This document shows, piece after piece, positions 7,126 to 56,996 of a stretch of DNA of 64,000 bases. The translations under genes were made by a program, and so were the position numbers. Each line of letters opens with the position of its first letter. Position 1 is the stretch's first letter. The stretch comes from Yuukianura sp. NJ FZ-2021. Taxonomy: Eukaryota. The DNA is taken from positions 11,656,001-11,720,000 of the forward strand of contig CM102285.1 in the NCBI GenBank assembly GCA_046563655.1. The letters run 5' to 3'. Under the pieces are notes generated by a model, which was not told the DNA's origin, did not search any database, and saw only the letters and a list, made by a program, of their open reading frames with translations.

Positions 7126-10100
7126 TCATGATCCTAAGTAAACACATTGAGTGTGTCCCTCGATAAGTTTTGACGGAACCAAAGTTTCCACGGGTTCGAA
7201 CGCTGCTAGGGCCCAGTTGTCTCGAACCTAGAAAAAAAAAGAATTGAGGAAAATAGAATTTCTTCAAAAACATTTATTTTCACTTTGGATGAAATTTCTC
7301 TTTAGGGAAATTTTGCGTTCGAAGACAATTTTCCAACTTGGAGAATGAAGCAATTCGACAGTTTGGAAATGACGCTGATTGTTTGAAATTTACAACTTAC
7401 GATTAGAGGAAGTGGTGGTGGGGTGGAGTTTTAGGTGATTCGTAAAAAACTTTTTGTGAAAATGAAAATTTGAAAATTTACAACCAAGGGCAAAATTTTG
7501 GTAAAATTTATTAACAGAGGGAGGAAAGTTGGAATTATCGCAAATCAGCACCTTCCATAATGATGGATTGGTTCCAAAAAAGTCCAAAAGTTAACTTAAA
7601 AAAGTTAGGTTCCCCATTTCCTGCTGAACTTACTTGCTCAACTTGGCGAAGAACTCGGAGAAAGTTAAGTCCAGCCAACTTTTTCAAATCATCGGCTGAC
7701 CAAGTAGAGTCTTCCAGAAGTTTTGTAAACAAATTAGGATACTTGGATGCATCTTCGAGTCCTTTAGGCGTACTGATCACAAAAAGACAAAATTACTTTA
7801 CTTACTTTGTTCCTTTGCTGAGGTAAACACAATGGAACCAGCCCAAATTCCCTTCTTTGTCATATAAAATTACACAAAAACGAAAAGTTCCCTTCAATTT
7901 AATGATAAAAGTCCTCAACTTTCCTTTGCTTTCCAATCATTTGTTAACTTTTCATAAGTTTATTTTCTTCGAATTCAGCAGGCCCAATTACGAGTGTACT
8001 TGCACAACTCAAAAAGACGAAAAAGAAAGTCACTTTTAGAAATTTTTTTCTCTAATGTCAAAGAAACCTCTGTGTGTCCACTCCATACCATTCCACCAAC
8101 CATGTTTTATAATGAATCTGGGTATTTTGGCTTTCACTGTGTCCGTTTCATTCAAAAATTTCAGACATAAAAACTCTTTCTTGCTTTCTTTGTAAGAAAT
8201 TTAAGTATGTTTCAAAATTATTTTCAAAAAGAGTTCTTGACGAACGGTAAGAAATTTTGTTCAAACTCCAAAATGAACTCACTAGATATGCAAAAAAAAA
8301 TCATCTGAAAACACGAGCCAAGAAAATGAAAGTGTTTTCGTTCACTTTGATTTCATTTTGAAAAAGTGAAAGTAGTTTTTGGCGCGTAATTCCGCTTGCG
8401 CCACTTCTACTAATTAAAGACATCCAAGGCTGAATTCCCTGTTTGTTTCTTCTAATTCCTTCTACTAACACCTTTCCTCGCTCTACATTTTCAAAATTTC
8501 ACTTTCACTTTTCGAAAACATTCTCCAAACTAAAAACGAACAACTTTTCTCCTAAGCTTTCTGGCCTAATTATCTCCCTCTTCCAGAAACTTCACGTCCT
8601 TTGTTTTTTAGCTTGAACGTAAATGCATAAGAACTCAAGAATACAAAATCAAAAGAGCTCTCACTCTCCCCGTCACTATTATTCAAATGAACAACACTTT
8701 TTTTAAACATTTAAAAAAAACTTCCTCTTTTCCAAAACTCAAATTTCTCAAATGTGACACTTCCAGAAGAGGATTCTGCAGACTTTTGTTGTAGTTTTTC
8801 CACAGAGTTATACTCTTCCCGTCCCGACAGGGATAATAAAGCTAAAGTAGTAAAAACTATTCACGTTGAAGTGAAAGAGGAACCAGGAAGAGTAAAAGTT
8901 GTTCAAAGTGGGTGTAAAAGGCATTAAGTACTTTGACTTTTTGAAGGTTTCCTGAGTTTCCTAACAAAAGCTCTCTTGCCATATTCTATTTTGTCCAAAG
9001 AAATAAAAATTTTGTTGCTTGTCATTTTCTAAACTTAGATCGTTCGTAACTTTCACTTCTCAGACGCAGAGAAAAGTTGTTAAACCCAATTTTAGTGTTT
9101 CTGTCTCAGGTTAGGTTTGGAATGTAAGTGCAGGAAAAATTCTGAATATTCTAAGGTAAATTTTGAGATCAAGATGTACTTACTAATTGATTCCATCAAA
9201 ACCAGCACCAATTCCAACATGATCAACTCCAGCAACATTACGGATATGGTTGATATGATCTGAAAAAAAATGCAAAAAAATTCAATTTAAACTTCCAGCT
9301 TTCTTGATTCTTTTCATTTAAGGCGACTTGGATTTGCCGCGCATCTCTTGTGATGATAATTTCCTTCATCTTAATATCCACCAAAAGTCATTACTTTTAA
9401 ATGAAATGTTCCAAAACTTCATTGAAGTTCTGGACTAAATGTTTTCGACTCATGGAAAATGAAGGAGAAAGCGGCAAGCAGATTCTAGATTTGAAGTTAG
9501 AAAGAACAAAGACTTCAAATGAGGTCTTGGCGGAGAAGACAATAAAGATAGGAATTTTATAGTGGGAAAATGGAAAAGTGTAAGAACAGGAGATGGGAGT
9601 TGAATTTTCCATTAAAAATGGAAAACTTCATGTTTTTCGTTTTTTTCTTCTTTTAAAAGTGAACAACCTACTTCTCATCTTAGCAGTTCTTAGTAGCTTT
9701 AGAAGATGAAAGGAGAAGCAGACCATCATGGCAGTGCCAAGTTTAAATCTTCTTGTCTTTAATGATTTTCAAAATCAGAATAGAAGGTGAAAGTGGGAAA
9801 AGGAAAACGGAATTGAAAACCTTCTTTTGGAAACTGGCCAAAAACTTGAGACTTATCGTTCCCTTTTCTCGTTTTTGATTTCTTCCTGCCTTTCTTGTGA
9901 TCCGTAAAAGTGAAAACTCTGAAGAAAGAAACTCAACCTAGACCGTGCAAATTGCCCTCGAATGATGCTTATAGGCTTAACCTACACACTTTTCGACGTG
10001 AAATGAAGCAAAGGTTGTTGTAAAAAAAAAAAAAGTTTAAAAAAAACTCGAAAAAAAAGTTGAAGACTTGCATTTTGAAAGTCTTTTAAAGTAGAAAGCG

Positions 10101-13100: not shown

Positions 13101-16100
13101 TTTTCTAAAAACTCCTAGAAATTTTTCACTTCTGCTGCTACCTCTGTTCTTGAAGTTTAATAAGAGACAACAATAGGAGAAATTATGACGCTCAACGAGA
13201 AACTTAAAAGGTAACGCCGCCGTCGCTTTCCTTTGAATTTAATATGGAAAAGAACTTAAAAAAAGAAAAGTACCGTTTGAGAACTCTGTTTTCAACTGTA
13301 ACAGTTCACACCCACGTCGCCTCTTTTGCTCAAAAAGCAACAAAAGAATTTGGACTTTCACTTCCAAAATTTTTCAAAACAAAAGAAAAAGGTTTAGTGA
13401 AAAGTGATTTTACTTTGTTCAATTTTTCAAACTGCGACTTTTTTTTTTCTTGTGATATTCACAGAATTGAGACTCTCAGGGAAAGTCAAATTTTAAATGT
13501 TTCTTTAGATATCTCAATTTTCATTTATATATAATCTTTAATACTTTTAAAATATGAAAAGAAGAAGCTTACCAATGACGTCGCTGATGCTGGCAGATTC
13601 ATTACAGGTGATAAAATAGCTGTAGAAGTTAACCATCACCAACCCACCATTCTTAGTCTAGAAAAAAGAAAGAAAGAGACAGAGCGGAAATAAGTTAAGC
13701 AGAGAATAATTGATGAGCACTGGAGCTAGTTGCTGCCATGAAGCGGAACCATTCCCGTCAAAAGTGAGAACATTTTAGCAGGAAGGAACTCCAGAACTAA
13801 CAAATCCTCTTGTAACTTTCCCTTTGACCTCACCGAACATCAGTCACGTGGGTAGACAGCCCTGATCTAAAAATCTGAAGCGCAGAGAGGCTTAGCTACT
13901 CCGGTTTTGGACTAATCCAATAGAACTTTCTCCTTCCCGCGCTTTCTCTAATTTCTTCAAATGAATTGGAATAAGTGATTTTTCCGTTTTGTTTTCCTCA
14001 CCAGTGATTGGAGAATATCATCAGGCACATTTCGGCTACTGTTACACAGAGCGTGAGCAGAGGAGTGTGAAAAAATGACCGGAGCATGGGTCACTTCCAG
14101 AGAATCCTTCATCGTCTGGACTGATACATGAGACAGATCCACTATCATGCCCAATCGATTCATCTCTTTTATCACGGACTGGAAAAAGAAAAGAGAAAGC
14201 AATGACACCAGTTCGAAGAAAGTGGAAGTAGCGAAATAGGAAAATCAGTGGGAGAGAAAGCAAACTGTCTCCCACTGCTTTCTCAATTTCCCGCGTTTTT
14301 TAAGAGTAGCTTATAAGACAAAGTAAAGAAAATTGGGAAAAAGTCTGCGTGAAAGGAAAGGGAAGGCCTATTTCCTTCGAATTTGTCAATTCCTATCTCT
14401 AATTTTCTTTCAAACTAGCTGATACGTTTCAGTCATCTCCAAAGGGAGTAACTATTTCAGCAAAATTATAACCGAATCTAACCAAAGCCAATAAATTTAA
14501 CATTAGTAGAGCTCAGAAACCATTAACTTGAATGTCATTTTCAAGAAAAATCCTATTCCTAATACACATTTTTCTCAAACAGTTTTGAAGTTTTTAGTTA
14601 CTCCCTCCACTTCTTTTTCTGAAGCGCCAAGTTGAAATTTCTTACGTTACGTTGAGTAAGGCATAAACTTTTAGTGATTCCTTGAACTTTTGAGCGTAAG
14701 GAGTTATAATAAGCAATTAAAGAATTTTGCCACTTTACACCTCTTACTGCCTTCTTCTTTAAGGTTTTAACCTCCACTTTCTCCTCAAGTTACACTTCCC
14801 ATTCCCCACATCTGGGCTACGGAAATGTAATATCCATAAAGGTAATAATCGTAATAATAACATTTCTAACGTCCTTTTTGGAGCAAGCAAGAAGACACTA
14901 TCACACATTTTGATATTTTTGGGAAGAAAGTAATGAGCCAACGTCCTCCCGCCATTTCCACATTTACTTTCACTTAGACTTTTGTCCCATGAAAACCCTC
15001 ATTACATTTGGTAAAGTCATAAAGGACCTCGCTTTCCTTGTGACTAACACTTCTACTGTGGTCTAAAAGAAGGTGGGCTAAAAGTTACCAAGGAAGATTG
15101 TTGCATGTCTTACTATACTGGAGAAAACTAGGGCATGGTTTCTTTAGTGGCTTCAATTGTACAAGTATTATTGCTACAAATTCTACTCGGGGAGTCGAGG
15201 GTGAAGAACTTTGAACTTATTCCTGATGGGGCAATGCACATTTATTAGGTTTACAAAGTAATTCTCACTTCTAAGGACAGTTGTGGATACTTGGGAAGCA
15301 TATGCAGTGGAGAGCCCTTAAGGTCTTCCAGAAGGATCTCGAAGCTTGTTGACAATTAATTAATGCCTGAGGTCTTGGCTTTAGCTTTCTACGACATGGC
15401 TGGAATGGAGATGAGAATCGGAGAAAGTAAACTCGGAATTACGTTGTTTACTTGTAAGCTTTCGATTAATGTTATCTCGTTTTCGCTCCGTCTCTTGGAT
15501 TAACAGGTAAAACCAAATAGTAAAGACAGAGAAACCCAGGAGAGAGGTTCAAGTTTCTTAAGTTTAATTAAAACTTAATTTGTCAGAAGTAATTACTAAG
15601 GAGGCTGAGATGAGTTTCATACTATGATATGGCACTTCTATGTTTGGTTACTTTAGGGTGGTTAGTGTGATCTTGCTCTAGTTTTAATCAAAGTTTACCT
15701 TGCCAAAGTCTTTGAGACCTGTGGACTTTGTTTTCTGTCCAGGATCATCAGCACTTGAACAGTCCGCCCTAAAAAATTAACAAAGTAGTAATCTACTTGC
15801 GAGAGATGTTACTGAAAGTTAAGAGAACAATTTAATCCAAACAAATCCTTTTTGTATTTTGAAATATTTGTTTGAAATTAGTGAAAGCAATTGTTTAGTG
15901 AAAGCAGATTTTCGTAAAAACGGTTTTTGAGGTAAATTGTGAAGAATTGTAAATAACTTACCAAGGTGTGTTGCAGGAATGGGTTAAGGTGAGGTATCGT
16001 GCACCGAGGTGGTAGAACATCCGGAGCACTGCAATGCTGTTTCCGATTGCATGACCTGATTCGAAACAAGAAAACAATTAGTCGTTGGACATGCAAGCCT

Positions 16101-19100: not shown

Positions 19101-22100
19101 AGTGAAAGTTGAGAATTGTGAATGTGAAGTTAAGGACTTTGAAATTTTTTTTTTGGATATACGCATGAGATACGTAAAAGAAAAAGTACGTTTTTTTTTG
19201 GAGAAAGTTGAATTTGGCGCATTAAAATTCCGTCGTTTTTTCTTCTATCCAAATCTCTTTTTATTTTTTCTTAAAAAAATGAAGATTCCATTTTTAGATT
19301 ATTTCCAGCTTCAATAGAATTTTCAAATGCAGAGGCACAGATCTCTCTGAAATTCCCCGTGTGCCAGGTTCCAGCGGAACCACGTTTCACTTTTAACAAT
19401 GAGCTTAACGGAATCTTTCGAGTTCGTTTTCAGAATTACTAAATGCGAACTCGGAGATTTTTCTTAAGGAAACTGAGAAGATGGATGAAAAGAGTCCTGA
19501 AAGATTTCGGGTGGTTTTAAGAACTTGGTTGTGATTGTACTACCAAATGAGATTAAAACCTAACATTGTTACATTACAAGAAGAAATGTTAGGGTGCCAA
19601 TAATTTAAGGCTGAAGCTTACTTTCTACCAAAACTAAAGTGAATGTTACCTTCCAAACAATTGGGAAATGATCGCTAGAGAAAGTTAACTCGCTAAATCC
19701 ATTTTCTTAATTAAGCTGAAAGTTCTAGCGGAAAGACAATAGGAGTTATTTCTCTCTTTCACGCTTCTATTGACCAGATATTTGGTAGATTTAGTAGATT
19801 TAGCACGATTGGAATCTTGAGGAATGTCTTGAGGCTAAGCTTCTTAGGTTAGGTAAGGCTAGTCCTGCCTAATATCACAAAACCTAGCTTTTCTCCGTTT
19901 TCTAGTAGAAACTTACCCTAACCACGCTGGAGTAAAATTAACTTAACCAGAAGTGGAGAAAGCATTGAAATTTAAAAAAAACTCACCTCTGGCCGTAGTG
20001 ACCCATTCTAAGGCATTGGAGTACTTTTCAGTGAGACGTCGAATTACGTCAATTTGTTCCAGCGTCAGTTGAACAGCATCTAAGTGTTGAGCACCGCAAG
20101 GGATGTATGCGGACCACAACTGAAAATGAAATTGGATAAAGTTTAGAAAAGGAAAATGGCACAGGAGGAGACAATTCATAAATCAGATGGAGTTGGCAGC
20201 GAAAGGAAAGCACGGAGAGCTATACTGCTGCTTATCGCTATCATCCAAGGTAAAGTCTTTGGCTGAGACCATAGTGAAAGCAAAGGCGCCGAAAGAATAA
20301 GGACTTGAGCAAACGCGTGCGGATTTGAAGGTAGCTTAAGACTTTCTCAAAATCACAATTGATTTCTTTCTTGGTCCATAAATTTCTTCCACTCCAAAAA
20401 AATATACACTCAGAAGTAAGCAAAGTCCAGTTCAATAGGTTTTTACTTCTTCTCGTAGCACTTTCTCTGACTCTATTAAGATTCGATTGAGCCTCGTAGT
20501 GGAGAATTGGACGGAAGCCATTTGATTCGCAGATACTGTCTCATACATTCTTGGAAACCATGGAGTTTACTTCCTACTTTCTTTCCAATATCTTTGATAT
20601 ACAAGATTCAAAGCAAATCACGCACCAATCTTGAAATATGAGTCATAGAAAAATGAGAGTTTCCACAATTTTTCAAAAGAGAAAGTAAAAATATACAGAA
20701 ACAAAGGATTCCAATTTACCAAAATTGTGGAGTCACATTTCGGAAATTGAGTGTTCAAAAAAAAAGTGAAAGCATTGAAGCGAGGCAGGCACGTAACGGG
20801 GAAAGTTTTGGTTCATTGTCACACTTTCACCCTAATGTAACAGTTTTTACCTGACAACCAACCATTCCTTGTTGCAGTCGTAGCAGGTCCGTATGAGACC
20901 ATGTAGAACGTGACCATGGCTCCAGTTTTCTCAGATCTGATGAAAAATTAAACTCCTGGATTTGATTATGAACAAATTTCCGAATGTTCCAAGGCAAGTC
21001 ATTGTGTCTGGAAACCAAAAAAGAGAAAGTTCTTAGTTGTAAAGAATTCATGAACTTTGCTATATTTTTTCTTGGTCTTTTTGTTTCCAAAAGTGTCACT
21101 TTTCGTATTCTCAAGCAACCCAAAACCGCCTCCAAATCTCCATTTTCTAGCAGACTTTCTTTAGCCATTACCCATCTTTCTTTTGGAATTTCTCTACCAC
21201 TAAAAAGCCTTAGGTAGCCCTAACCTAACCTAACTAGCCATAATATCCTTGGATCCATGATCCTGAAGACTCTTCTAGACTTCTATTGTCTTTTCGGTCT
21301 TCTTGAAGCTACTAGAAGAGCTCTCGGAATGAAACGACCGTCTCTATTCAAACCTCAGCAGCGTCAGACCGTGTTGTTGAGACTCTAGCGCTGCTAAAAA
21401 CAAAAGGCCACTCTAAACGCTCTTCCCTACATTAGATTAAAAGTTTTCGAAACGAAGGAGACGAGGCGTTGCTCTGATTAGGATCCTTTGCTCCTCCTTT
21501 ATAATCAACTCTAATTCAGTTTGAGTTCTCTAAATCAACAAAATCTGAGGAGGAAGGGGGAAAAAGTTCAACTTTTGAATTTTCGGCTCAACGCTTTCAC
21601 AACTTTTTCTTCCCTTTCTTTAAAAAAAAAAGAGAAGAAAAAATACTGCCTGTGCTGAAAGTGTAGAAGACTCTTCTCTGCCTTCTGCACTAGAGTTATG
21701 TACTATATGTTAAAAAAGTGAAAAATGGGATGCGTTTCAGTTATTCTAAGGGTTCTCATCTATCATAGACTTTCTTTTGGGTACTAGAAGAGAAAAAATC
21801 GGATTTGATATCTTTATTTTAACGTTTGTAAGCGTAAAAGCGGCTCATTTTTAAAAAAGTTTGTGTCTTCCTTCTTTTTCTTAGTTTACAGGAGAAAGTG
21901 AGCACCAAACCAAAGCGGACTTTTGGTTTCCGTTGAAAGTTGAGTTTTCCATGTGACCGGAGGCAAAAGACATAACAAGAAATCTTGTGGAAAGTAAGTA
22001 TGACATAGGCAGATTAAGGATGGAGGGAATATGAACTCTTCTTCTTCTTCTCTCCAAGCCTTACTAATGGGGTTTTTACTTTTATAACTTATTTTCTCCT

Positions 22101-25100
22101 TATAGTCACGAAGAACCTACAGGGTGGCCCGGTGAAGTCCTTACCCAAGTGAAAGAAAGAGAAACTCTCACATGAGTTTCTTATGACAATAGTGAGAGGA
22201 AAAGAAAGAGGGTAAGGACTTCACCGGGCCACCCTGTACGTTAAAAAAACTAGAGCTGGAATTTTTCTCTCCTTTCTCATAACAAAGTTTAAAAATCAGA
22301 GGCCTTAGAGCATAAGGACTATAAAAACAAGTCTTGTTCCGCAGAACGAAGTTTCATCTCTCACCTTTAGTGTCAAAGTTGGATCATATCATCCATCTTC
22401 TTTTTTTACTTTGGAAAGTGGATTGGACTAGGGGCTTTGGGAAGACTTAAAACGGCTAAGAACACATTATTTTTACCTCAGCATTTTCAAACTTTCACTT
22501 TGCTTAAGGTTAAGGCAGGCTAGTTCACCCAATATGGTAAGGATCCCGTAAGTTTAGTAAATCTCGGAAACTCTTTTGTTAATTCTTGGAAACTCACTTC
22601 TCAAATTTTGGAAAACTAATATTTGGAAAATGCTGAGAAAGAGAGTGAAGAAAGTCATAAATTAGGTTGGAAATTATTCATAGGATTTTGTGTGTATTTT
22701 ATTGACGTTTCTCGCCTCCACCTCCATCTCCTCCTTCCTTTTTGTTCAAAATTGGACAAGGCGGATCCAATTTAGCCACAAATTATGCATGGCTTTTTTC
22801 CTCTTGATTGAAACTCCACTTTCTCTATTGTCATTTTCTCCTTTTCTCCAAGTTATGAATCCAAAATGAGGAGTTATTGTTTTGGCCGAAGCTGAGTAAT
22901 CTCTAGAGCTCATAATTCATCAACAAAAGGCTTCAAAAGCGCTCCTAAGTTTTCACTTGTTTTGTTTTTGGAGGCGACTGATGACTCTTTGAAAAGGAGC
23001 GAAAATGAGAAATTAGTTTCCACTACTCTGATTTTCGGTTTCTCCGAAACATCTCTAATCACAATCAGAAGGTTCTGAGACCAGTTTTCCACAAAATCGA
23101 AAATCGAAACTTCATCTTTGAAAATTATTAATAAAATCGCACCTTAAAATTCAACTAGCACTGGAAGAACAAAGCAAGTTTTATCGCCTACTAATTTTAG
23201 CCCTTTGATACTTTAAGCTTTGAATAGACATCTCAGTTCCTCAATGGCTTTCTCCTGAATGACTTTCACCTGTTCAACAAAGTTTGACTATCCTGGAGCA
23301 GCCGAAGTTTTTGAAGGGTCCCCTCAAATGAGTCCTCAAGGGCTCACTTTCCCATAAGGTAATTGAAACCGGGTAAAGGTGGGTGTTAAGGTAGTGTCTA
23401 GACATAGTGATGCTAAGGGATACATTAAGAACACAAAGTTTCCCTGTTTCTTTTCAGAAGAATGGAAACTTCAAATCAAGTCCCAGAGCTATCATTTCCA
23501 TTTTATTTCTTTTGTTCTTCTTGTGCAGTTTTGGTATGAGTTAGTTGTAAAATGAAAAGTTGGTGGGAATGATGGTCGTCCAATGCCTGAAACTAATGAT
23601 TCCCCAGCGACTACTCAGGTTTGAGTAAGTATCTGGTTCAGAAGAGCTATTATCTGCCATTAGAAGTTTAGGAGAGGAAAGTTCCTGGATCCGGGAAACC
23701 GGGACCTTGTGGGTGTAAATTGTCTCAGCTAATTAATCCTTAGCAACACCACCACCATCCAATTTATAACATGCTACGACGGTTAAACAGAAAACAGAAA
23801 CAGCTTGCTGACCTCCAGCTCAAAGTACTTTCTAATGGTTTTCTCATTTCGGAGAAAAAAAATGTGTAAATGCTTGCGGTGTGGCCGCTTCGTTTTCTTT
23901 ATAACCGACACAAAAATTTAAAGAACTTAAGGCTGTGAAAGTTCTAACTTCAAAGTTTATGAGTTTCAGACTTTCGAATTCCAATATTTTTAAGCGTAGT
24001 ACATAATCTATTCATACTTTTTAGAAAGCAAACTAATCACTTGTAGTTAATCATAATTAGATTATGACAAATGTGCTCAATCTGCAGTAAATACTAAATA
24101 GCGTAACAATTAAGGTTCGTTGACTCCATAGATGGAGACCAACATATGTGTATTGCCATTTTGTCAGTGAGAAATCTGTAGAGCTCGATTTTGGGTCAAA
24201 TCTCCATAGACTTCATCGCTTTTTATTAATTCTTCCTCACTAATTCATCAAAGTTTTATTTCGATACAACTCATTCCGCAACACACTTTGACGGATCACA
24301 GAAGACAGATTATTGGAAAAGCTCTGCTCGGTTTCAGATTTTTTAAGAATTAGATTTAGCTTAACTAGGTCAATTGAAATGTTTCTTTCTTTCGCTTTCG
24401 CAGTTTTGGTTTTAGCGAATCCTCTCGCCATGGGATATGTCGTTCCTAATTCAATTGAAGTCGACGACAATGCTCTTGAATTGGAAATTAAGAGAGAAGA
24501 GCCTAGCTGGGTACCGAAACCAACTTGTTCCTCCAAATACGAAGATTGCCTTGGTAAGAAAGTATTACAAATCAGATTTTCAAAAAAATAATGAAACAGA
24601 GGGATTTATGCTACTCTGTTTTTATTGATGAGAATAGCGGAAATTGACACTTCTGCGGTAGAGAAAACAACTCCCAGTAGCAGAGACCCTGAATCGTCTA
24701 GCGACAATCCACAAAATTTGAGCGAATACCAAAAAATTGTTGTGGCCACACTTAATTGTTCGAAATTGTATCTCCAATGTCGCAAGGAATCGAAGGAGAT
24801 CCAAACAACGACTGCTAAGGAATTCCTCTACTACTAATTTAAAAAAAAACATCAATTGTACTAAAACCGAATACTAACATGCAATTCCAGAAGCAATTAG
24901 AGGAAACACATTCGTTTGTAGTAATTATTAAATGGATACGTAACATTTTCTCGGAAAATGAAAAAGAAACCTGTTTTTTATGTCTTTTTAAGCCTTTCTC
25001 CATTTCGTTTTCGAATTGGTGAGTGAATCAGCGCAAATATAAATTTTGCAAAGCTTTATTAAGAACCTCTGCAATCGGAGTCATGAAAATGTTGGTTTTT

Positions 25101-28100
25101 GATGGGCGGAAACGGAAACGCTGTGGTTTGTAAATTTGAAACTCGAGCTTCCGCTGGCATCGGAATTTGTTAACCTCTTGCCCAGAGTTATTGATCAGTT
25201 TAGAAAGCACGCCCAGTGAGTGGCCACTTTTGTTTGAAAAATGGCTCAAATTTGGTACATATTTGGTAACATTTGGCCAGTACTCGTTTTGCCTAGACCT
25301 CGGGTGACCCTATCCATGTTGTCACTCCTTCTTCTGGTATCATCTGCCTTTTTGACAAGAACCGCAGAGGCATCACCACTCCTGGCACTACGAGACAATG
25401 TGAGCATAAATATTCGGACAAGATCTGCTGAATTATTGATCTCTTTTCGGAAAACCTAACTTATTGTTTTTCAGCCTCTGCAAGGAATAGAGTTGTCCTC
25501 GGAACTTAGGTTTCATGACTACGGACAACAACAGTTCCACAACTACAACCCACAACAACGAAGACACAAACGACTCCTCTGCTTCTTCCATTGGATATTT
25601 ACCGGAAGCTGCTAAAAAATTAATGGAACAATCCCTACGTCTCCCGCCGTCCTTACAGCACAACCAACTTTTTTTTACTTTCTCCTCGACGAAAAATCAT
25701 CATTCATATCCTTCCGCATATCATAATTACAAATAACTGCAAGGGAGCAGTAGATACCAAACGGCTTCCGCTTCGCGAGAGAAGAAAGGAGCTTTTTCAA
25801 AATTTTGGGAAGAATTAGGACATGTACGTGATCTGAACACAGTACGTGTTCTAGATTCCAGAATTATGGTGTAGAGAAGGAGAAAATTTGGAAGATTCTT
25901 TAAGCTTACGTGATGACTTTTCTTCATTAGTCCTCTCCCGTCAACAATTGAGCTGAATTCAAAAAATTCTAATATTTTCTTTTCAAAATTTCTTTTTCTC
26001 TGAAACCTAAATTCTAAAAAATTACCAAAGCTCATATTCTAAATCTTGTAGTAAAAACTTTCTAATAAATCACTGATTTTCTATTGTTTTGCTAATTCTC
26101 TTCTGAATTTTGTTTCAACCCAGACGCAGATTCTGTGAAACCTAAAATAAGTTGGTTTCTCCCTTTCAATACTCCGTTCTATTGTTATTAAAAGGCGGGA
26201 TTTTGTATTTCGAGCACGTTGCAATGAACGCACAAGTCATACGGAGGAAGGCAGAGGACATGCCTCGGAGGTCTTTTTTTCAAGACTACAAACGGGTAGG
26301 TTGTGAGTTTATTATGCAGGGCCCTTCCAAAAGAAGTTCTCAGGAGGACAATATGTGGTATGACTCCGGTGAAAGTGAAAATGGGAGAGGGTGGACGTGG
26401 TGAAAGTAAATTGAGTGAATGCTGTGTTCCCGCGAGTCATAATAATCCGCCTGTTCCATTTCAGCTGAAGGAAATTACGTCCGATGCGAAATAGAAAATA
26501 ACTGAAGGTCTAGGTTTATAGTAGAAAGTATAGGCGGTGAATGCAGTTTTAGCCTGAAGCAACTCATCAAAAAGAGGGTGAAGGCAAGTTAAGTCGTCGT
26601 ATGTTCTGTCGAATACACAACGCATGTCGCACTGTCGCCATCACCAGTATTTCTATTTCCGTGGTGACAAAAATGACTCTTCGCCTGTAGCCATTTCGGA
26701 ACTAGGCTGATGCGCTTCTATAGCTACCACTACGATAATAGCTTCAACGTAATTAGATTATGAGATCACTCTGCTAGAGAAAGGGAAGTGAGCGACCGTT
26801 CGCTACTTTCTTTTTTAGAATAACATCAAAGTCAAAATCCAGACAGTTTTAGCTTTTTGAAAAGTTAAGTGTAAAGCTTTCACCCGCCCTCCATTTAAGT
26901 ACTTTCAACTGTTGTTTCTAAGGGCTTAAACTTTGACTTTAAAATTGGCACTCTAACGGCACTGCACAAAGACTTGCAGCAGCAGGGTGGCTATACCAAA
27001 ACAAAAGAGAAAAGCTAAAGCTAGCTTTCTCCGTTGGCGAAAATGTAGAGAAGGGAGCAACTATGTTACGTTATGAATTTCTCTGCGTGAAGTAATATAC
27101 GGAAGGAAACGAGCTTTCATGCCAAAGTTTAGGTGGAACCTTGTGCTCTCGCCGGTTCCAGAATTATTTTGGTGAAAGTTAAAAACAAATAAGCAAACTG
27201 CATTCATGTCCCCTCCTGCTGCTTAGTGTGATAATAATCGGTAGCATTAATCTTCAAATTCAATAGAACCACACACACAAACAAACTCACACAACCGAAC
27301 ATGAGCACAAGAGATTCGCAGGAAAAGTTTACAAAAGAAAAGCGAAGCTTTTACCTAGAAAATGCTTTTCAGTTTCTAAAGCTGAAAGTTGGAATTCGAA
27401 AATTTGATGAAGCAAATAAAGCGAACCATTTAGTTTTATCAGACCCAGAAGGCTAAATTACGCAAACCTTTTCATACTGAAACTGAATACTTTCACAAGT
27501 CTAGTGAAATCCGATTGTTTTTAGCAAAATGGATTTTTTAACACTTTTGAAACCTTTGAATCTCCAAGCTGTACAAACATTTTTACTGAAATTTCGAAGT
27601 AGCAGGCTTCATTTTTCATTTAGGTTTGCCTTGCAACTCATTATATTGTGAATTTCCGAAAATCATATTGACAAGAAATTTTTTAAAGCAAATTCAAAAT
27701 AGGTCAATGTACAGCTTAAAGTAAAATGAAATGAAATGAGCAGCGATTTTCTTAGTTTCAAAAAGTTTAGATTGAGAAAATGAGAAAACGAGAAAGAATT
27801 CAAGAGAATTTTAGCTGTGAATGAAGTTCCGGAAGTTGGAGAGGCCCATTGTGTAAATGATGAAATCAAATAAGGAGAAAGCGTAAGCACAAAATTATTC
27901 TGAAGAAAAGAGAAATGGAAATGGCAGGCGGAGGGACAATGAGCGGTGAAGAACATAAACCAGAAGAAGAAAGTCCTCAGCTCCAATGTATTTTGTATTC
28001 ATACTACAAGATTAAACCGTGGAAATTCTTTGAATTCGTCAACTTTCTCTTTCCTTTCAGTTTTGTACAGCCCGGGGAGCATGACAGAGCACGGCGGTAA

Positions 28101-31100
28101 CTTCGGCTCATGATTGTGTGGGAATGTCGTTGACGCTTGGCTTCTTCAGGCCTTAGCCTCTTTTTCTATGCCCTGGGTACTTATGAGCCCTTCAGAGACG
28201 GAGACAGTGGAAATGGAGGCGGAATAAATCCACTGACTCTCTCGGGTATCCAGCTTACTAAAGAAAAAGTACTACTGATTCTCTGTCGCTTTTCTAGACT
28301 AAGGGCTGAGATGAGATCCTGTAAAAGTTGAACAGACGGCTTATTTCTCAAGTTCCGGAATTGAAAATGCATATTGCATGGCCATAGGACCTAAAATTAC
28401 TCAAGTCGGATTTAATTCTAAAATTAACGGGAAGGTATTTTTTTCTTCAAAATTTGAAAACGGATTTGTGGGTACTTTTAAAAACTAAACCTCGATGCAG
28501 TAAAAGTTTCTAAATTTCAGACAACGAAATTATAAACCGAAGTATAAATTGTAATCTAGTATGTCTGGGTTTGTGACAAAAGTGAACTCAAACTCACCTT
28601 GACACGATTGAAATTTTAATTTCAATTTTACATAGCGAATTTAAGTGAAAACTGTCTTTTGTGCAGAAAAATGCGAATTTAAATTGATGTTGTCATTCTA
28701 GTGACGTCCTTTGGGAAGAAAAAGGTGAAGTGGCAGTCGAGAAGGTGTCAAAAAACATGTAAACTTTTCTAGCCTTTCACTTTCCAAATACATATTTTAA
28801 AATTTAAGGTTCATAAATCTAAATTGAAAGGAAACCAACAAGGAAAAGTAAAGCTGCTTGAAACTCACAGAGTCTTGTACAAGACACCGTTGCTAGCAAA
28901 AGTGAAAAAATTGAAATGAATTTTGAGTTTTTGCATATGAAAAGAAAGTTTCTTATTCCGTGTTTTTCAACTATTACTTTCTCTAGAGAGTGAAAGTACT
29001 TTGGCAAATATGAACATTTTGAATAGAAGCACTGCTTTTTGACTTTCACTTGTGATTGTCAGCGAATTCAAATTTTGAATTCAATTGCATCTACAAAAAT
29101 CGTACTAGATTTGCAACGGTTGAGCAAATTCTATTAAGTTGTTGGAATTGGAACTATAGTGAAGGTTGATATATTTTGAACGCAGGAGCTTGTAGCAAAG
29201 TTGTTTCATATTTCCCGGACGTGTTTGTTGTATGAAAAAGTACGATAAAATGGCCAGTGGGAATTGATGGAGAGGCTGTTTTTCCGAGCCGTTTTTTAAA
29301 GTAGGGAGAAGATGAAATTCGCAAGGGAAAGGAATGTTTCTTCTCAGTGAAAAAAAGTCGTGAAAATCAGAGCAACACGTAAAGGGGAAAAGCATAAATA
29401 GAAAAAGAGAAAGCAAGGGAGAGTGCTACAATAGATTTCCTAAGTTACAATACACACAAAACGAAAAAAGGGAAGGGCAAAATCAATTTCAGTTTTCTTT
29501 TTAACTTTCTCCGCACTCTTTTTCGTCTTTCATGAACCCTGCAACTCCATTTTCTAAAAAGTTGGTGCCATCATATTGACTACCTAACTTTTTAACTTTC
29601 TTCTTTCTATTTTGGTCCATCAAGTCGTAATGAAAAGGAGCACTTTGCTCTCTTCAATTTTAACTTTTTATTGCTTCGATTTAACAAACAAGTGACAAAA
29701 ACCCGACCTCTTTTCCAATAAGACGCATGCGACTCTTTTCAAAAAAATTGGCTAATGCTAAAACTGGAGCGCTAATGCCTTCGCATTGCACGACATTGTA
29801 GTAAACAATGAAAATTCTTTCAAACTTTTCGTCGCTTTAACTTTTTCTGCGGCCATCGAAATTTTTTCCCATAAGCCAAGCCTTCTTCCTAAACTTTTTT
29901 CTCTCGTCGATCGTTCACTGACAGTCTTCTATTTCCCACCTTGAAAGCTTGACACATTTTCTCAATTTTTTCCAAAAACCCGGGAAAGTAACTTTGCTGG
30001 TTGAGAAAGTGTCATACAATTTCAACTTTTGTATAAAAAAAAAAGTTAAAAGGTTCTAGAAACTTTTTAGTTGCCCCCATCCTCAGACGACTTTATAATT
30101 CATTTTCCATATAAAACTTGTGCAGCCTTTTCTATCGCGTTCCGATGCCTTTTTCAATCAATACGTTGTGTCACTTTCTATGCCTACAAATGCATAATGT
30201 TTAGGATTTTGGATTAGTCAAATCAATAATACTAACTAAAAGGATTCTTGCACTAAGCTTTCACTAGAGCGAACTGCTTTCTCTTTAGGGAACCATTTCT
30301 GTTACGTACAGTTTTTAGTAGAGCTCACGAATCTCGTACACTCTTTAGGACTAAAGTACGTTTGTGTTTAATTAATAATTCATTTCCGTGAGTAGTCACG
30401 AAGTTCTGAGAATACAAAGTTCCATATGGGAATCCTAAAGCTTTTCAGGAGTCGGCTACTAACTAAAAGCAAAAAAAAGGACAGCTCCTGGAACGCTTCA
30501 AACATAAATTTACAAACAGAAACGTGGTGCTGTTAGTAGGCTTAAAGCAGAAGATTTACCAGGAAGGAGTAAACTTTAAGTTTTGTTGATGATGTTGACG
30601 TTTGGTGAAAATGGATCAAAAGAGGACTGGAAACCTTAAGGCTCTCCTAGTTCCGCCTTCTCCTTCTTCGTAAAATGGTGTTTGTTCATCTCCAACTGGG
30701 TTTTCAATTATAAAAGCCTAATCTAGAACAAAATCCATCTTCATTTGAAGTTTTTGGGGCCTTCAAGGGTCCTCCCATTTCCTGATTAAAATCCATCCTT
30801 AAACTTTTAGACCAAAACCTTCTGGAGCAGCAGGAGAAAATCTTAGTTTTCACTAGAGAAAGTCTTCAAATTACGATGAGAGGTCAAATGTGGGGTGAGG
30901 TAACACAGGTTTCAGATATTCATTCCTAGAACAGCAAAAAGCCTACGTTGATTTTTTGTTACTTTAACATTTTTTCGACTTTCTGCAAGAGTGAAAGCAA
31001 TGGCCTTGACTAAAGTGCGACGCTTGACAGCAGAAATCAGTGCTGAGGATAGCGAGTTTGCCAGTATGTTTACCCGGCATAGCAAAAAAAGTTCCGAGGA

Positions 31101-34100
31101 ATGAAAACAAACATTAGTACCCAATGTCCAGCTTTCACTTTATTTTTCTTTGGATTTAGAGCCTCTAACTCTTTTAAGTTTTTCTTTTGTGTCCTCCAAC
31201 CCTTGTTTTACAGAAAACGGATGCGGGGGAGCTGGAAACTTGTAAAAATTTTCTGTTTGTTGAAAAAAAAAGACGAGGAGCTGGTGAAAGCAAAAGGAAG
31301 TTAGAAAGTCGTAGACCAACGACTGTGTATTTTTGGTGGATGGGCTTGCTGCTGCCGACTCTTAAGTCTTATATGGACATTTTTTCTACTACGCTTTCTT
31401 TTTTTGGCGAAAAAAACGGGAAAACAGAACTCCGAAATTTTTGGAACGTGGAAAGATCTCCCATGAGAATCAGTTCCTTCTAAGTGATTAATGTAGAGCT
31501 TCGACATAATTACTGACTTTGGATGGCCGTACCTAACCTAACGGTAGAGTGTAGGTTGTGTACGCACAAAACAAACTTTTCGTTTTTGCTTGGAGTCGAA
31601 ATAGAGTCCTCGCCAAAAATGAAAAGGAAGGAATTTCACTTGGGACTGCTTGGCGGCAAAAATGAAACTTTCTCTCTATTTGACGCTTGTCCAGTCCAAT
31701 TCATTTCAGAGAAAAAAAGAGAAGATTTTGGAAAGAGAATTTTTTCTGCCCAAATATTTTTATTTGTTCAAAAAGTTATCCAAGAAGATAATACGAAATA
31801 AACTCAGGAGAAAACCTGTTTAGAATAAAAAATGCATTGGTTGTAGCGTGATTTTTGATTGTCAAAACCCAAAATTTTAAAAAGTTTGCTACTGCTGTCT
31901 GCTCCTCCCTTATTTGAAATTTTGGCAAGAAATGGAAATGATTGCTTTCACTTTTCAAAACCTTTTTCTTTCTCGTTTGGAGACAGATGCGTGTAACAGG
32001 CTTCAGAATTTCTTTTTCTATTGAATTTCATCCTAAGTTCTATCGTACTGCTTTCTCTAACCTAACCTAGGGTTTGATCAGAATGCCGAATGAATGGAGA
32101 AGTTTTCGGTGCCAAGAGGAGGTCAATATACTCATCCATAATATTCAGCAGCCTCAACTGCAGTGTTTTCATCTAAGATGAAGGATGAAATGAGGAAGAA
32201 TGGTTGGAAATAAGGGGTGGATTTTTTGGACAGGGTGATGGACGTATCTTACCCATCAATCAACGGAACTTCTCTCAAGATCTTCTGAACAGTCTGCAGA
32301 CGATCTTTGGGCGAGGGGATAAAATCTTCATAAATTGCCAATGGAACGCCAACTCCGACTCCAACAATTCCAGCCAGCAGAAGAACACCGCCTACGAAGG
32401 CCCAGTGCCTCATTCTTAATTCTGCTCCTGCCAAACAGAATAAATCATTAGAACATTTCCATTTTACCAGAATCTGTCACAGCCCGAACAAATTTTCATA
32501 TCAAACGCTTGTTTTCTAGCAACCAACTCAAGATCATGTCTTAACTTTCACTAAAAATACAGCGTATAACTTAAAACTCTTGAGGCTTCGTTTTGTATAA
32601 ACTTCTGGAACGGACTTACTCCAGTATTTTCCCAATGGAAAGGTGCTTTATTCGTTGTCTCCGAGCTAATTTACAAGTACTAAAAGCACGGGCGCTCATG
32701 CGCATTGCTCCGCTGCTAAAAAAATTACTAAAAACGGTTTTTTCTTCCTTTGCATCTGAAAAATTCCTTTGAAGATTTGCCAAGTTTAGAACAAAGGAGT
32801 TTCTTTTGTGTCTTCACGGTAGCAAATTAGTAGAGCCAAACTTAATGACTGAGTCGACATTGTTTAATTAGAACCTTTGTTTTTCTAAAACAAGTGATTT
32901 AAAATAGCTTTTTTGAAATCCTGTAACTGCATAGGTAAAAGAAACTGTTTGTGCTGTTGCAATTTGCTGATGACAACACAGGATTTGGAGAAAGTCAAAT
33001 CCCCAAAATTTAATTAACGCCTAGGAACTTGTGTTCTATTCTTGTGCAAATTAACTCTTCATTAGTTTCTCTTTCATTTTGATAAACTAATTCAAAGCAA
33101 AAAAGGCCTAAGCAAAGTTGACTAAAGTTAGACTAAAGTAGTATCCTATGTTTTTAAGCCCAAAATTTACAGTAGCACAAACAATCTCCAGCTTCTACTG
33201 TTTGTTAATTTTATTTCAAGTAATGTAATAAAGCACTGCCTTTCAAGTTGATGTCTGTCAAGTTCTAGGAATCAGTCAAGAGGCGGAAGTGTCAGCGGGA
33301 GTTGATGATGTTACGTTTTTTAAAAAACTGACATTTTAGCTTTCTTTTTTTGAAATTGTAAATTCGAAAAGTCTCACAGCCTGCTTAGCCTTCAAGTCCT
33401 GCTGTGAAGTCTCCTGCCAACTTACCCTGCCATAAAAACTCATTACATTCAAGCTGTTTCTTTCAAACCCTAAAAAATCCTATTTCAAATGTTCTTCGTC
33501 TTTAGCCTAATTCGTAATTTCTAAACGAAAAAAACCAGCAAGGTACTTTGTAATTTTAAATTTACAATTTAGTTCTTCTTTTCTGTTTAGAAAAACGACT
33601 GGAGTGGCTCATGTGATGGGAATGCAAATTAAAATTAAAAAGAAAAATGACTCACTGCAAACTTTCACTTTTAGAATAAATTTTTCAATTGAAAATTTAG
33701 AGCCACTTCGCGACTTGAAATTTTAAAATTTTGCAAACAAGCCAGTTAAGACCTTACCTCTTGTATCTTGTATTTCAGGCTCGTTTTCTTCTTTGCTATT
33801 TGAACTGATTGAGTCTGCTTCAATAACTGTTCGGCCGTTGATTCGAACTGCGGAACCGTTTTGATTCGACAGTGGAAGACTGACGACTGTGGAAAATCCA
33901 ACTGGGCTCACTCGACTAACATCCGGCAATTCAATTAAACCTGTAGTTCCCTACAAGGAAAAAGAAGTATGAGACACATTGTTAAATTCAAAGGAAATTA
34001 CACCGGAGAAAGTGCAACTTTCTAGACTTTCTCTCCTGTTTTTTTAAGTAAAAAAACTGAAGCGAGCGGTGCAACACTCATATCCTTTGCTACAAAAACA

Positions 34101-52500: not shown

Positions 52501-54431
52501 CTAAACATTTAAGAATTGGAATGTTATAACAGGAGGATAACTTTTTGATTTTACTTGGAACGTGGAAATCTTGGAATTAATTCCCACCAGCGACCAGCTT
52601 ATTACTGAAGCAGTTTTCTAAAAATGTAAAAATAATGGAAAGGAAAGTAGTAAACGCACAATTTGTTTTATTTTCTAGGGTTTTATGCTGATGGAGTGTT
52701 CAGTGAAAGCAGCAATTCAACCAGAACTTACTACTCACGGGAAATGTACTTTCGTGATCCAAATCGACAAGTCAAATTCAGCAAGCTTTCATACATTGGA
52801 CCAATCATTATGGGAGTGGGGGGTGAGCTACGCAGTGCTCTTGCTTGCTACTATCTAGTTTTTCAAAGGTTTTCACCGAGAAATGTTGAAATGTGTCACT
52901 TCTGGTTTGGGATTTACAGGGTTCATCATCGTGGCGACCTGTGTGATGACCTTTGAGGCCCGTGACTCGGCTGCCAAAGTGGGTCCGGCGGCATATGGAA
53001 CTGGGACGGGATCTTCATCTGCAGGTCGATCCTACCCATTAACGAGTAAGAGTCGTCGTGAAGTTCGGAGTGTTGGGAGTCAGACGCAAGGCTCCTCTCT
53101 CTCCGGCAGTACACTCCAATTATTTGACAGAAAACACCTAATGGATGCTTTTCGAAAGTTTTCCAAGTAAATTAAAAAATAACTTTTCCAATCATTTCTA
53201 GAAAGAAAAAGTTAAGTAGAAGAGAAAATCGTCGGATCAGTAGCAGAGTACAGTCAAGTCTCCCAACAACTTCTGACTTTTTTAAATTAGAGGAGTTGGA
53301 GTCAATTTCTAAAGCAACTTCAGTAACTGACAGTGAAAGTTCAACTTTCAACCTAACTTGGGTTGAAAATTTGTAACAACCCGGAAAAGTTTAGACAAAA
53401 TCACTTCGAAATGTGCTGGCTAAGGATCCCCTGTGATCGCTTCCAATTTGTAAAACTTATTCCTTATTTGTACCATCTACGTTCACCTTTTGAACTCTCC
53501 GAAGCTTTGACTGTACTCAAACAACCTGAACCAAAAGTAATCAATTTTTGATTTGTGTTTACTTTGTAGAACCCTCCGGAGTTCGGCGTCAGTTACGTCA
53601 ATGCAGGGAGACCAGTTTCATCGAAGTCCATCAGCACCATCCCTCCTAAATGCAGCACTTCCAGCACGTCGTGGAAGTGCTTCCAGTTCCAACATATCCA
53701 GTACTCGTCGTTATCTTCAAAAGACAAAACCCAGAATACCTCCAATCCTACGTCAAGCAATGTCCGTCGATTGTTCCCATAGTGGCCCAAATCCACATCC
53801 GTTACTTTCTCCTTCTATGCGACAAAATAGTTCAACCCAGACGCTGACGTTACCTCAGTTATCCAATTCTTATTTATTGAGACACAATCATTCTGCTGGA
53901 AGTCCTAGTAGGTCCATGGCTCATCCCAAGATTCAGCGGGGATTTTACTCAACTTCATCTGAATGCAATCCATCAACAACCAGCAACGTCACGCTCAACG
54001 AAGAAGCTCATGAAAATACTAAAATTCGATTCGAAAACGAACGAGTTCTGAGAAGTGTCAATGCCAGTGTCCACTTTGATTCTGACAGCAGCGACCTTCT
54101 TTCCAATGGACTCCTCCGTAGTCTTAACGTCACGAGACCAAACACGGCCGGTTCCTGCAGTTCCCTAAGAACACTGTCTCCACATCCTAGTTATTACAGT
54201 GAAGACTCCATGGATATTTCTCCAGCCAAAAGTGAACAGATTTCAGTTACATGCAGATCACCAATCTTAGTCCAAACGTCCAAGTTACGTTCTGCTGAAC
54301 TGTCGTACACTCGCCCTTCCCTGTTAAGACAACCGAAAGTTGATTACTCGGAAATTACTGCAATTCCGGATTCAGACGAAGACGAACCCACCCTTGTGCC
54401 AGACGACGATTTAAGTACAATTCCTGAATAA
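49520..54431 (+). CDS. TMEM200: TMEM200/DUF2371-family transmembrane protein, ~487 aa, 5 exons
   Basis: Exons 49520-49627, 50730-50832, 52679-52822, 52920-53166 and 53570-54431; phases 0/1/1/2 consistent, 1464 nt. Two TM helices: CLWHACRALFVGILLFGIGTVMCISGFY and YIGPIIMGVGGFIIVATCVMTFEARD, matching the TMEM200 GP-IMG-G-F...E-RD pattern. Long Ser-rich disordered tail. Confidence 0.8.
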
Positions 54432-56456: not shown

Positions 56457-56996
56457 TGTGCTTTTGCCAAGCACAAGGTACTACCAGTGTGTTCGTTCCT
56501 CCTGTTAGGACCACAGGTACTTAAGAATATGACGAATTAAATAAAATGGCCTCTCTGCGTCAAATATGTGTATAAAATATTCACTTACCTTAAGCACTTA
56601 CCTGAACTTCACGATGTCAACGTCAAGCTCAATGTCACAACTGACACCTTAATTGACACTCTTCGAGCTCCGAATACGGAGCAAAGCGATATCTTGCCCT
56701 AACCGCTTATTCAGTTCGGATTGAGCGAGCTCGACACCGACTGTTTGGGAAGTTGGTAAGAAATCTTACGCACCCTAACCCAAATCAATTGCTTTCTTCT
56801 ACTGCGATATGTGTCAAATCAGCAGCAGTAAACAGCGCAGCGGTTGGTTTAGAAGTTCTGATTCTTGATTAGAGGCCTCGTACACGTTTAATGGGTTGGT
56901 CGTTAACTCGTTGCTAGTTTATTATGTGAAGCAGGAAGCAGTACGAACAAGGACATCAACCTAAAATTAAAATCTGGTTAGAAATACACAGAATCC

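Follow-up and report, generated by a model that had tools for sequence, protein, structure and literature searches.

The two-exon reading frame at 25316 to 25615, which had been proposed to encode a precursor of a somatostatin-reminiscent cyclic peptide, is most likely an open frame that arose by chance rather than a functional prohormone gene. We offer this as a weighing of odds, not as a demonstration, and hold it with about as much doubt as confidence. The frame lies on the forward strand of a window of 64,000 nt from Yuukianura sp. NJ FZ-2021 (GCA_046563655.1, CM102285.1, forward-strand positions 11,656,001 to 11,720,000; coordinates below count from the start of this window), where it sits antisense in the ~11-kb first intron of a membrane dipeptidase gene. 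In the reading we prefer, three things would coincide in that intron: a hydrophobic, ATG-started ORF, a short intron that is canonical by chance and a low-complexity patch, which is first A+C-rich and then C+T-rich. The Gln-rich "propeptide" and the RRHKR site would then follow from translating A+C-rich, T-poor DNA in this frame, the Leu/Phe/Cys-rich "mature peptide" would be a readout of the pyrimidine-rich run that follows, and no peptide would be made. Composition, unremarkable coding statistics, the lack of a relative, the problems at the start site, the commonness of hydrophobic ORFs and the odd tail all argue for a chance frame; the rarity of the pattern under null models, the textbook intron, the exon-like GC, the coding-like exon 1, the neighboring precursor-like ORF (ORF-A) and the absence of a repeat relic argue against it.

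Reading and translating the DNA reproduces the structure given in the original prediction exactly, to the base. Proposed exon 1 (25316..25399, + strand, 84 nt, 28 codons, GC 0.476) opens with the ATG at 25316; the proposed intron (25400..25474, + strand, 75 nt, GC 0.333) is in phase 0, with a GTGAGC donor and a CAG acceptor; and proposed exon 2 (25475..25615, + strand, 141 nt, GC 0.454) comprises 46 codons and a TAA. A CTAAC at 25456-25460, 14 nt 5' of the acceptor, is followed by a tract with 10 pyrimidines in 12 positions and by the CAG that ends at 25474. The intron is close in size to the three short introns of an NYN gene in the window (about 79, 104, and 83 nt). From stop to stop the exon-2 frame spans 25460-25612; it holds no Met and is therefore absent from the list of ATG-started ORFs, as the prediction had remarked. 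The GC of both proposed exons falls in the range of real exons (0.43-0.48) and the window mean is 0.374, but the contrast between exons and intron is not independent evidence, because open frames favor GC-richer DNA. The canonical 75-nt intron and this GC contrast are among the points in favor of a different reading, which we consider possible but doubtful, namely that the precursor of a small secreted peptide is genuinely encoded here by a lineage-restricted (orphan) gene, which lies nested within the dipeptidase intron on the opposite strand and may form a pair with ORF-A.

The features of a precursor that had been described can all be read in the translation: the frame starts with a hydrophobic segment, continues through a Gln-rich spacer to RRHKR and finishes with 13 residues, of which the last, at the stop codon, is Cys. 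Exon 1 encodes a hydrophobic core, with a best 9-residue hydropathy of 2.49, and a possible signal-peptidase site, A-E-A/S, with no basic n-region; the phase-0 intron falls nine codons past the putative end of the signal peptide. RRHKR (25559..25573, + strand) fits the furin/prohormone-convertase pattern R-x-K/R-R, one of the two forms looked for beside a peptide (the other being KR), and directly precedes the last 13 residues, so placed that cleavage there would release them. This C-terminal tail (25574..25612, + strand) contains two Cys with nine residues between them, the second lying just before the stop; the DNA coding for the first part of the tail is a CT-rich run. It has no Gly for amidation, is strongly hydrophobic and rich in Leu, Phe, and Cys, and carries one His as its sole charged residue. 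Were the orphan gene real, a prospect that we do not favor, its N-terminus would direct the product to the ER, signal peptidase would cut after A-E-A and a furin-type convertase after RRHKR. The 13-residue tail could thus be released as a peptide looped between its two Cys and with its C-terminus free, a step about which we are equally hesitant. The product might serve as a tissue-specific secreted factor, for example of a reproductive, salivary, venom or endocrine gland, though we put this forward tentatively; in a variant that is no firmer, the 37-residue spacer would be the active product.

Such a gene would resemble those of the Drosophila seminal peptides, sex peptide and DUP99B. Those genes are very small, consist of two exons and a short intron, and encode a signal peptide and, at the C terminus, a disulfide loop closed by a second Cys that is the last residue. 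These peptides evolve fast and have a narrow taxonomic range; they are not known to be released at an RxKR site, and they are less hydrophobic than the candidate tail. Known soluble peptide hormones do not look like this tail, strongly hydrophobic and uncharged apart from one His; as a hormone it would be an odd one, which counts against the orphan-gene reading. An antimicrobial peptide was considered and dropped, as the tail is not cationic. A reading of the F-T-G..C ending as CCAP-like, based on the motif as generally known, was likewise rejected: loop size, missing amidation and flanks do not fit.

The family to which the candidate had been likened offers explicit motifs for comparison. In PMC9048919, all SSRP and SSRP-like peptides are described as sharing a WK motif in the Cys loop (FWK/YWK or I/V/LWK), with loops of 4 residues (UII, URP, as well as SSRP-like peptides of protostomes) or of 10-15 (SS/CST and echinoderm SS2). 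The one W of the candidate loop is preceded by H and followed by I, so that W-I stands in place of WK, and the loop of nine residues falls one short of the lower bound of 10. For protostome ASTC the same source gives a loop of always six residues, Asn in most loops, FxP in many, particularly ecdysozoan ones, and an aromatic first loop residue as a feature of arthropod ASTC (PMC9048919). The candidate loop has nine residues and contains neither N nor P, in agreement with the statement in the original prediction that this is not a canonical AstC (C-x9-C rather than C-x6-C, and no F-N motif); its first residue is aromatic, as in arthropod ASTC. All SSRP and ASTC genes examined there, chordate SS/CST among them, are reported to have one phase-0 intron within the pro-region, and ecdysozoan ASTC genes an additional phase-2 intron (PMC9048919). 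The candidate model, with its 84-nt exon 1, carries one phase-0 intron in the pro-region and no phase-2 intron, although the ecdysozoan expectation may not apply; the phase-0 intron is not specific to the SSRP family and would be expected for almost any two-exon precursor.

Set beside SSRP/urotensin II precursors, the candidate is alike in having a putative signal sequence, a pro-region, a basic site and, at the extreme C terminus, a looped peptide with a free acid end, but differs in lacking the WK (FWKT) core, in its nine-residue loop and in a tail without a basic residue. Set beside ASTC/CC/CCC precursors, it shares the C-terminal Cys-loop after a basic site, the aromatic residue after the first Cys and the phase-0 pro-region intron, but has no six-residue loop, loop Asn or FxP, and no phase-2 intron in the model. 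Precursor similarity is likewise missing, Pfam-A giving no family and HMMER only a spurious repeat protein. Of the claim that the precursor has the architecture of somatostatin and AstC precursors, the layout (a C-terminal Cys-loop after a basic site) stands and the family-defining motifs do not. The somatostatin likeness, which the prediction itself had flagged as possibly coincidental, fails as a family hint on the WK motif and the loop size, and thus does not survive the family's own defining motif. That the candidate is a divergent SSRP (somatostatin/urotensin) or allatostatin-C member acting on a somatostatin/AstC-type GPCR therefore appears highly improbable, a reading that the motifs bring close to refutation.

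Composition bears on the chance-frame reading. The segment 25515..25572 (+ strand), with base fractions of 0.47 for A, 0.33 for C, 0.12 for G and 0.09 for T, is low-complexity DNA rich in A+C (80%) and encodes the Gln/Asn/His-rich spacer together with RRHKR. No stop occurs in any of the three forward frames from 25515 to 25612, and exon 2 is overlapped by two ORFs, one of 81 codons that is longer and runs in a different frame (25491-25733), the other antisense and of 87 codons. The length of the exon-2 frame is thus largely explained by composition. Codon usage is indecisive. At -0.075 per codon, the codon log-odds of the candidate lies between the +0.186 of known exon pieces and the -0.186 +/- 0.132 of 391 non-genic ORFs, and 21% of the null ORFs score as high. 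By a position-specific score, exon 2 stands at -0.039, a value reached by 35% of 390 null ORFs, while the rival frame stands at +0.010 and held-out real exons average +0.033. Exon 1 alone is coding-like by this measure, its score being reached by 4.9% of null ORFs. Overall, the coding statistics are ambiguous and do not single out the candidate frame. For the orphan gene these results cut both ways, as the composition of exon 1 is coding-like but exon 2 is not and lies in low-complexity DNA.

One argument for a real gene comes from the rarity of the pattern. Our scripted search required an ATG-started hydrophobic ORF, a GTRAG donor, a YAG acceptor with 9 or more pyrimidines in 12 positions, an intron 40-300 nt long and a 40-200-aa product, criteria that were chosen after the candidate had been seen. 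Three constructs in the real window satisfied them, and only the candidate has a dibasic site followed by a two-Cys tail. A loose version of the pattern, with the two-Cys tail after any dibasic site, arose in 10 of 150 windows simulated with an order-3 Markov model and in 18 of 500 simulated with an order-5 model (28/650 together). The strict RxKR version was found in 0/150 order-3 and 0/500 order-5 windows (0/650), and the reversed window gave 0. The Markov null, however, yields too few junk ORFs, with 8.6 hydrophobic-start ORFs per simulated window against 18 in the real one and 0.28 clearly junk "dibasic plus two-Cys tail" ORFs against 3. Because the pattern is rarer than the null models produce, a real lineage-restricted gene stays a serious rival. 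Hydrophobic-start ORFs of at least 22 codons number 34 in the window, and chance instances of the pattern are still to be expected across a whole animal genome. Compared with chance or proto-gene intronic ORFs, the candidate has the same lack of homologues, ambiguous codon statistics, low complexity, overlapping ORFs and antisense position in a long intron; it is unlike them in a combination of features rarer than the Markov nulls give and in adjoining a second precursor-like ORF.

A match to an already named peptide family, which the original prediction had listed as grounds for abandoning it, was looked for by word search, Pfam, and HMMER, and none was found. With exon 2 as query, a word search of proteins of 25-81 aa returned no relative, and no Pfam-A family matched at E up to 1. 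HMMER against 1.84 billion protein representatives produced one match, a 1065-aa bacterial-type surface repeat protein that was matched through eight copies of its repeat and is not a homologue. A scan of metagenome contigs with the whole stop-to-stop frame (25460-25612) yielded 593 pattern matches and a single tblastn pass, on a bacterial-type contig, where it falls within a 268-aa ORF but in a different frame. Among PDB sequences nothing fell below E 0.2, and no ESM Atlas look-alike of exon 2 was accepted (best score 0.80, recognition 1179). An 11-residue string from the tail and a 12-residue string from ORF-A had no full-text literature match, a weak result as supplementary peptide tables fall outside the scope of that search. 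The lack of a homologue in protein collections or metagenome contigs counts against the orphan gene, but small, fast-evolving secreted-peptide genes typically have no detectable homologues. In addition, the 294-aa exon of the NYN gene, compared with longer proteins only, gave 3602 candidates and none at E up to 0.001; missing homologues are thus weak evidence, because this exon is also unmatched and the collections may contain no close relative.

The start site is a difficulty for the orphan gene as drawn. The proposed ATG at 25316 has T at -3, a poor context, whereas an in-frame ATG 75 nt upstream (25241..25243, + strand) lies in the better context AAAA-ATG-G and opens a 72-aa ORF (25241..25459). 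If the transcript begins upstream of that codon, 25 extra residues would precede the hydrophobic core, which would then start 26 residues in. Three more ATGs, all out of frame, lie within 235 nt upstream of the proposed start. The sole initiator-like TCAGTT between 24850 and 25316 (25195..25200, + strand), a consensus word only, lies upstream of the 25241 ATG; a TATAAA at 25038, also a consensus word only, is not at -30 from it. Downstream, the first AATAAA (26064..26069, + strand) lies 449 nt past the candidate stop.

These observations also bear on whether the DNA is transcribed but read otherwise, as a non-coding antisense RNA of the dipeptidase gene, as part of a longer transcript with ORF-A, or as coding DNA with a different frame or with the start at 25241, which we think quite unlikely. 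With that start, a version we rate just as low, the product would have 99 residues, among them a long N-terminal extension. Consistent with such readings, the candidate lies in a GC-richer, ORF-dense block at ~24.2-26.4 kb, whose 2.2 kb contain 10 of the 127 ORFs in the window that reach 75 codons; the 25241 ATG combines a strong context with a position downstream of the only initiator-like word; and the rival frame at 25491-25733 scores slightly above exon 2. However, a Pfam search of all frames between 21.5 and 30.5 kb, which took in 91 ORFs with 40-74 codons as well as the longer ones, found no domain, and the first exon of ORF-A, spliced straight to the 25475 acceptor, meets a stop within 12 codons. 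A Myticin-prepro match at 23787-23918 was sub-threshold, with E 0.0053 over 91 queries and a score of 17.4 bits where the cut-off is 28.5, and is treated as chance.

ORF-A (24379..24837, + strand) lies 0.5 kb upstream of the candidate and is itself precursor-like, with a hydrophobic start that is the strongest in the window, a KR, a C-x6-C stretch and GKK. Alternatively, it may be spliced from a strong donor of its own (G/GTAAGA at 24554) across an AT-rich intron of 84 nt into a frame of 66 codons, in phase, where another C-x6-C is found; this second frame leans towards coding, its score being reached by 6.9% of null ORFs. The ORF-A pattern (hydrophobic start, KR, two-Cys peptide, G-KK) occurred twice in 400 simulated windows, and an ATTAAA at 24927, 90 nt after the ORF-A stop, is as expected for tandem genes. 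The presence of such a neighbor alongside the candidate favors the orphan-gene reading. Against this, window self-comparison revealed no detectable sequence similarity between ORF-A and the candidate, and they are therefore not recent tandem duplicates. A word-based protein search with ORF-A gave three candidates, none at E up to 1; nothing fell below E 0.2 among PDB sequences, and the second frame had no usable ESM Atlas look-alike. We regard it as unlikely that ORF-A and the candidate are a real pair of lineage-restricted prohormone-type genes, with the C-x9-C cyclic 13-residue peptide founding a signaling or secretory peptide family that has no described relatives and is unrelated to somatostatin/AstC. 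If the candidate were real, it would be an unannotated peptide-hormone-like gene without a known family, found from raw sequence alone, and would provide a test case for small secreted-peptide genes missed by annotation and a new ligand for orphan receptors. As it stands, the chance-frame reading illustrates that low-complexity DNA after a hydrophobic ORF and a canonical-looking intron can mimic a precursor convincingly.

The position of the candidate, antisense in an intron of another gene, also counts against a straightforward prohormone. A transposon or repeat relic was considered and set aside, as self-comparison of the window gives only matches of at most 18 nt there, and Rfam at gathering thresholds and a tRNA scan each returned 0 hits across the whole window. 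The host is a Peptidase_M19 membrane dipeptidase gene on the minus strand, whose putative first and second exons, with the intron between them, lie at 20880..32413 and whose later exons reach down to 7538. As assigned by motif, its first exon would begin with the ATG at 32413 and end in ..PLIDG, and its second would carry HNDLPWN.. at ~21006. The later exons are marked by Pfam matches to Peptidase_M19, all on the minus strand, at 19946-20182 (profile positions 47-94), 15961-16077 (111-145), 13960-14244 (164-225), 13550-13657 (225-252), and 7538-7792 (278-319).

Direct reading and translation of the sequence confirm the forward-strand, two-exon candidate exactly as it had been delineated. Exon 1 extends from an ATG at 25316 to 25399 (28 codons) and is followed by a GTGAGC donor at 25400, a 75-nt intron (25400–25474) that contains CTAAC at 25456–25460, then a T-rich tract, and ends in CAG at 25474, and an in-phase exon 2 (25475–25615) that encodes 46 residues before a TAA. 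Because the exon 2 frame has no methionine, it is indeed missing from the ATG-based ORF list. The prohormone-like layout described in the original prediction is also present, with a hydrophobic start and a putative A-E-A|S signal-peptidase cleavage site, a spacer of 37 residues, the proposed convertase site RRHKR (25559–25573) and a 13-residue tail. The tail contains two cysteines with nine residues between them, the second being the final residue, and has no glycine for amidation. If real, the product would act as a generic prohormone, being processed by signal peptidase and a furin-type cleavage and closed by a disulfide. Genes of the sex-peptide/DUP99B type, which are small, fast-evolving two-exon genes with products that terminate in a loop closed by Cys, provide the nearest overall design.

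The rarity of this arrangement was assessed with a scripted pattern, the criteria of which were set only after the candidate had been seen. It called for a hydrophobic ATG-initiated ORF, an intron of 40–300 nt running from a GTRAG donor to a YAG acceptor with no fewer than 9 pyrimidines in the 12 nt before it, and a product of 40–200 aa. Three constructs from two starts match this pattern in the window, compared with approximately one construct in each simulated window, and of the three, the candidate alone combines a dibasic site with a downstream tail of 6–40 residues that contains exactly two cysteines. With any dibasic site allowed, such tails arose in 10 of 150 order-3 Markov windows and 18 of 500 order-5 windows, while the RxKR version arose in none of either set (0/150 and 0/500), although this null under-produces ORFs (8.6 hydrophobic-start ORFs per simulated window versus 18 in the real one). 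The reversed real window contains no such pattern. These rates indicate that the pattern is unusual within one window, but even at one per thousand windows, chance instances are still left genome-wide. Three plainly junk ORFs with a dibasic site and a two-Cys tail are found in the real window, whereas the Markov null, again falling short, gives 0.28.

The evidence on whether the candidate is coding is decisive in neither direction. Codon log-odds, trained on 934 codons from known exons of the window, gave −0.075 per codon for the candidate, compared with −0.186 ± 0.132 for non-genic ORFs (n = 391) and +0.186 for the training exon pieces; 21% of null ORFs reach the candidate value. On a second, position-specific score with 12 parameters and held-out positives, the candidate scored −0.003 (null, −0.073 ± 0.077, n = 390; held-out coding, +0.033 ± 0.047, n = 20). 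Exon 1 is coding-like on this score (+0.056), whereas exon 2 is not (−0.039), and an overlapping frame, 25491–25733, scores higher (+0.010). That the DNA belongs to a transcript read differently would seem improbable. The poor score of exon 2 stems from the composition of 25515–25572 (A, 47%; C, 33%; T, 9%), a stretch that reads as Gln, Asn, His, Lys and Arg in the candidate frame; all forward frames are stop-free across 25515–25612. This A+C-rich stretch supplies the RRHKR codons, and a pyrimidine run encodes the beginning of the tail. The GC contents of exon 1 (0.476) and exon 2 (0.454) are exon-like and that of the proposed intron falls to 0.333, but this contrast is not independent evidence, as open frames favor GC-richer DNA anyway. 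Whether the candidate is a chance frame is an even call, with the low-complexity origin of its spacer and cleavage site set against the rarity of the pattern.

The consensus words for start and end, which are not evidence of function, do not favor a clean model of the candidate. For the proposed ATG at 25316, position −3 is T. Another ATG, in frame at 25241 (AAAA-ATG-G), would put 25 more residues before the hydrophobic core, and the sole initiator-like TCAGTT word, at 25195, lies upstream of that ATG. Three further ATGs, at 25083–25102, are out of frame, and the nearest downstream AATAAA is 449 nt past the stop.

Database searches yielded no relative of the candidate in a word search of 5.8 billion clustered proteins (25–81 aa), in PDB sequences or in the ESM Atlas, and no Pfam family at E values up to 1. 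HMMER, run against 1.84 billion representatives, returned one match, a 1065-aa protein with eight repeat copies and a cell-wall-anchor-like end; this repeat protein aligned over the spacer only and was rejected as a homologue. The sole metagenome-contig match was out of frame on a bacterial-type contig and was likewise set aside. The word-based search of longer proteins also found no relative of a 294-aa N-terminal exon of the NYN gene in the window, which suggests that the organism is poorly represented in protein collections. As these may contain no close relative of it, missing homologues are weak evidence.

The likeness to somatostatin and allatostatin-C (ASTC) raised in the original prediction is not supported, while its statement that the peptide is not a canonical ASTC is borne out. 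According to PMC9048919, all somatostatin-related and somatostatin-related-like peptides have a WK motif, their cysteine loops contain four residues (UII, URP and protostome forms) or 10–15 (SS/CST and echinoderm SS2), and the group is apparently missing from ecdysozoans. The protostome ASTC loop invariably comprises six residues, in most cases including Asn and frequently an FxP motif, and a phase-0 intron in the pro-region is common to all genes examined. The candidate has W-I in place of WK and a nine-residue loop with neither Asn nor Pro, and by the families' own criteria therefore falls in neither. It resembles them in its phase-0 intron and overall layout only, which are expected of almost any two-exon precursor. 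A true somatostatin or ASTC relative is thus very unlikely.

Approximately 0.5 kb upstream of the candidate lies a second precursor-like frame, ORF-A (24379–24837, forward strand), which has the best hydrophobic, signal-peptide-like start in the window. Unspliced, ORF-A contains a KR site, a C-x6-C stretch and G-K-K, a pattern found in 2 of 400 simulated windows. A spliced alternative would use a strong donor, G|GTAAGA, at 24554, an 84-nt intron (GC 0.26) and a weak acceptor (4 of 12 pyrimidines) to reach an in-phase 66-codon frame, which has a second C-x6-C and leans coding-like (6.9% of null ORFs score as high). ORF-A has no relatives in word-based protein, PDB sequence or ESM Atlas searches and no similarity to the candidate in a window self-comparison. 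The adjoining of two precursor-like frames is the strongest argument that orphan secreted-peptide genes form a small cluster here, as opposed to noise, although ORF-A is weighted moderately because it was noticed after the fact. Together with the pattern rarity, textbook intron and coding-like exon 1, this neighbor makes a real, lineage-restricted secreted-peptide gene a possible, if doubtful, reading of the sequence, against which stand the low-complexity DNA that encodes the spacer and cleavage site, a second exon that does not look coding, the difficulties with the start codon and the odd hydrophobic product.

Long open frames are in excess on both strands of 24243–26436: of the 127 ORFs in the window with 75 or more codons, 10 lie in these 2.2 kb. 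The region also contains GC-richer blocks, and the excess is without explanation if nothing there is coding. A 44-codon forward frame with a Cys-rich piece at 23787–23918, 0.5 kb upstream of ORF-A, gave a sub-threshold Pfam Myticin-prepro match (E = 0.0053 with 91 queries run together; 17.4 bits versus a cut-off of 28.5) that is probably chance.

The surrounding DNA is AT-rich and animal-type (GC 0.34–0.41) and gene-poor, with introns that range from very long to short. Pfam identified reverse-strand exons of a Peptidase_M19 membrane dipeptidase at 19946–20182, 15961–16077, 13960–14244, 13550–13657 and 7538–7792. Its putative second exon (HNDLPWN.., ~21006) and first exon (ORF start 32413, ending ..PLIDG, with an N-terminal hydrophobic anchor) were assigned by motif, as neither piece was scored by Pfam. 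The gene would thus span 7538–32413 (~25 kb, at least seven exons), placing the candidate antisense in its ~11-kb first intron. A Zc3h12a-type NYN RNase gene (54892–56480, reverse strand; Pfam) has three short introns of ~79, 104 and 83 nt, as read from the sequence, so an intron of 75 nt is of ordinary length in this genome. A 296-codon forward frame at 53541–54431 is Ser/Thr/Pro-rich and has no family match, and an E2F-like exon lies at 61062–61523 on the forward strand (frame to 61526; Pfam E2F/DP winged-helix, 25.5 bits versus a cut-off of 25.7).
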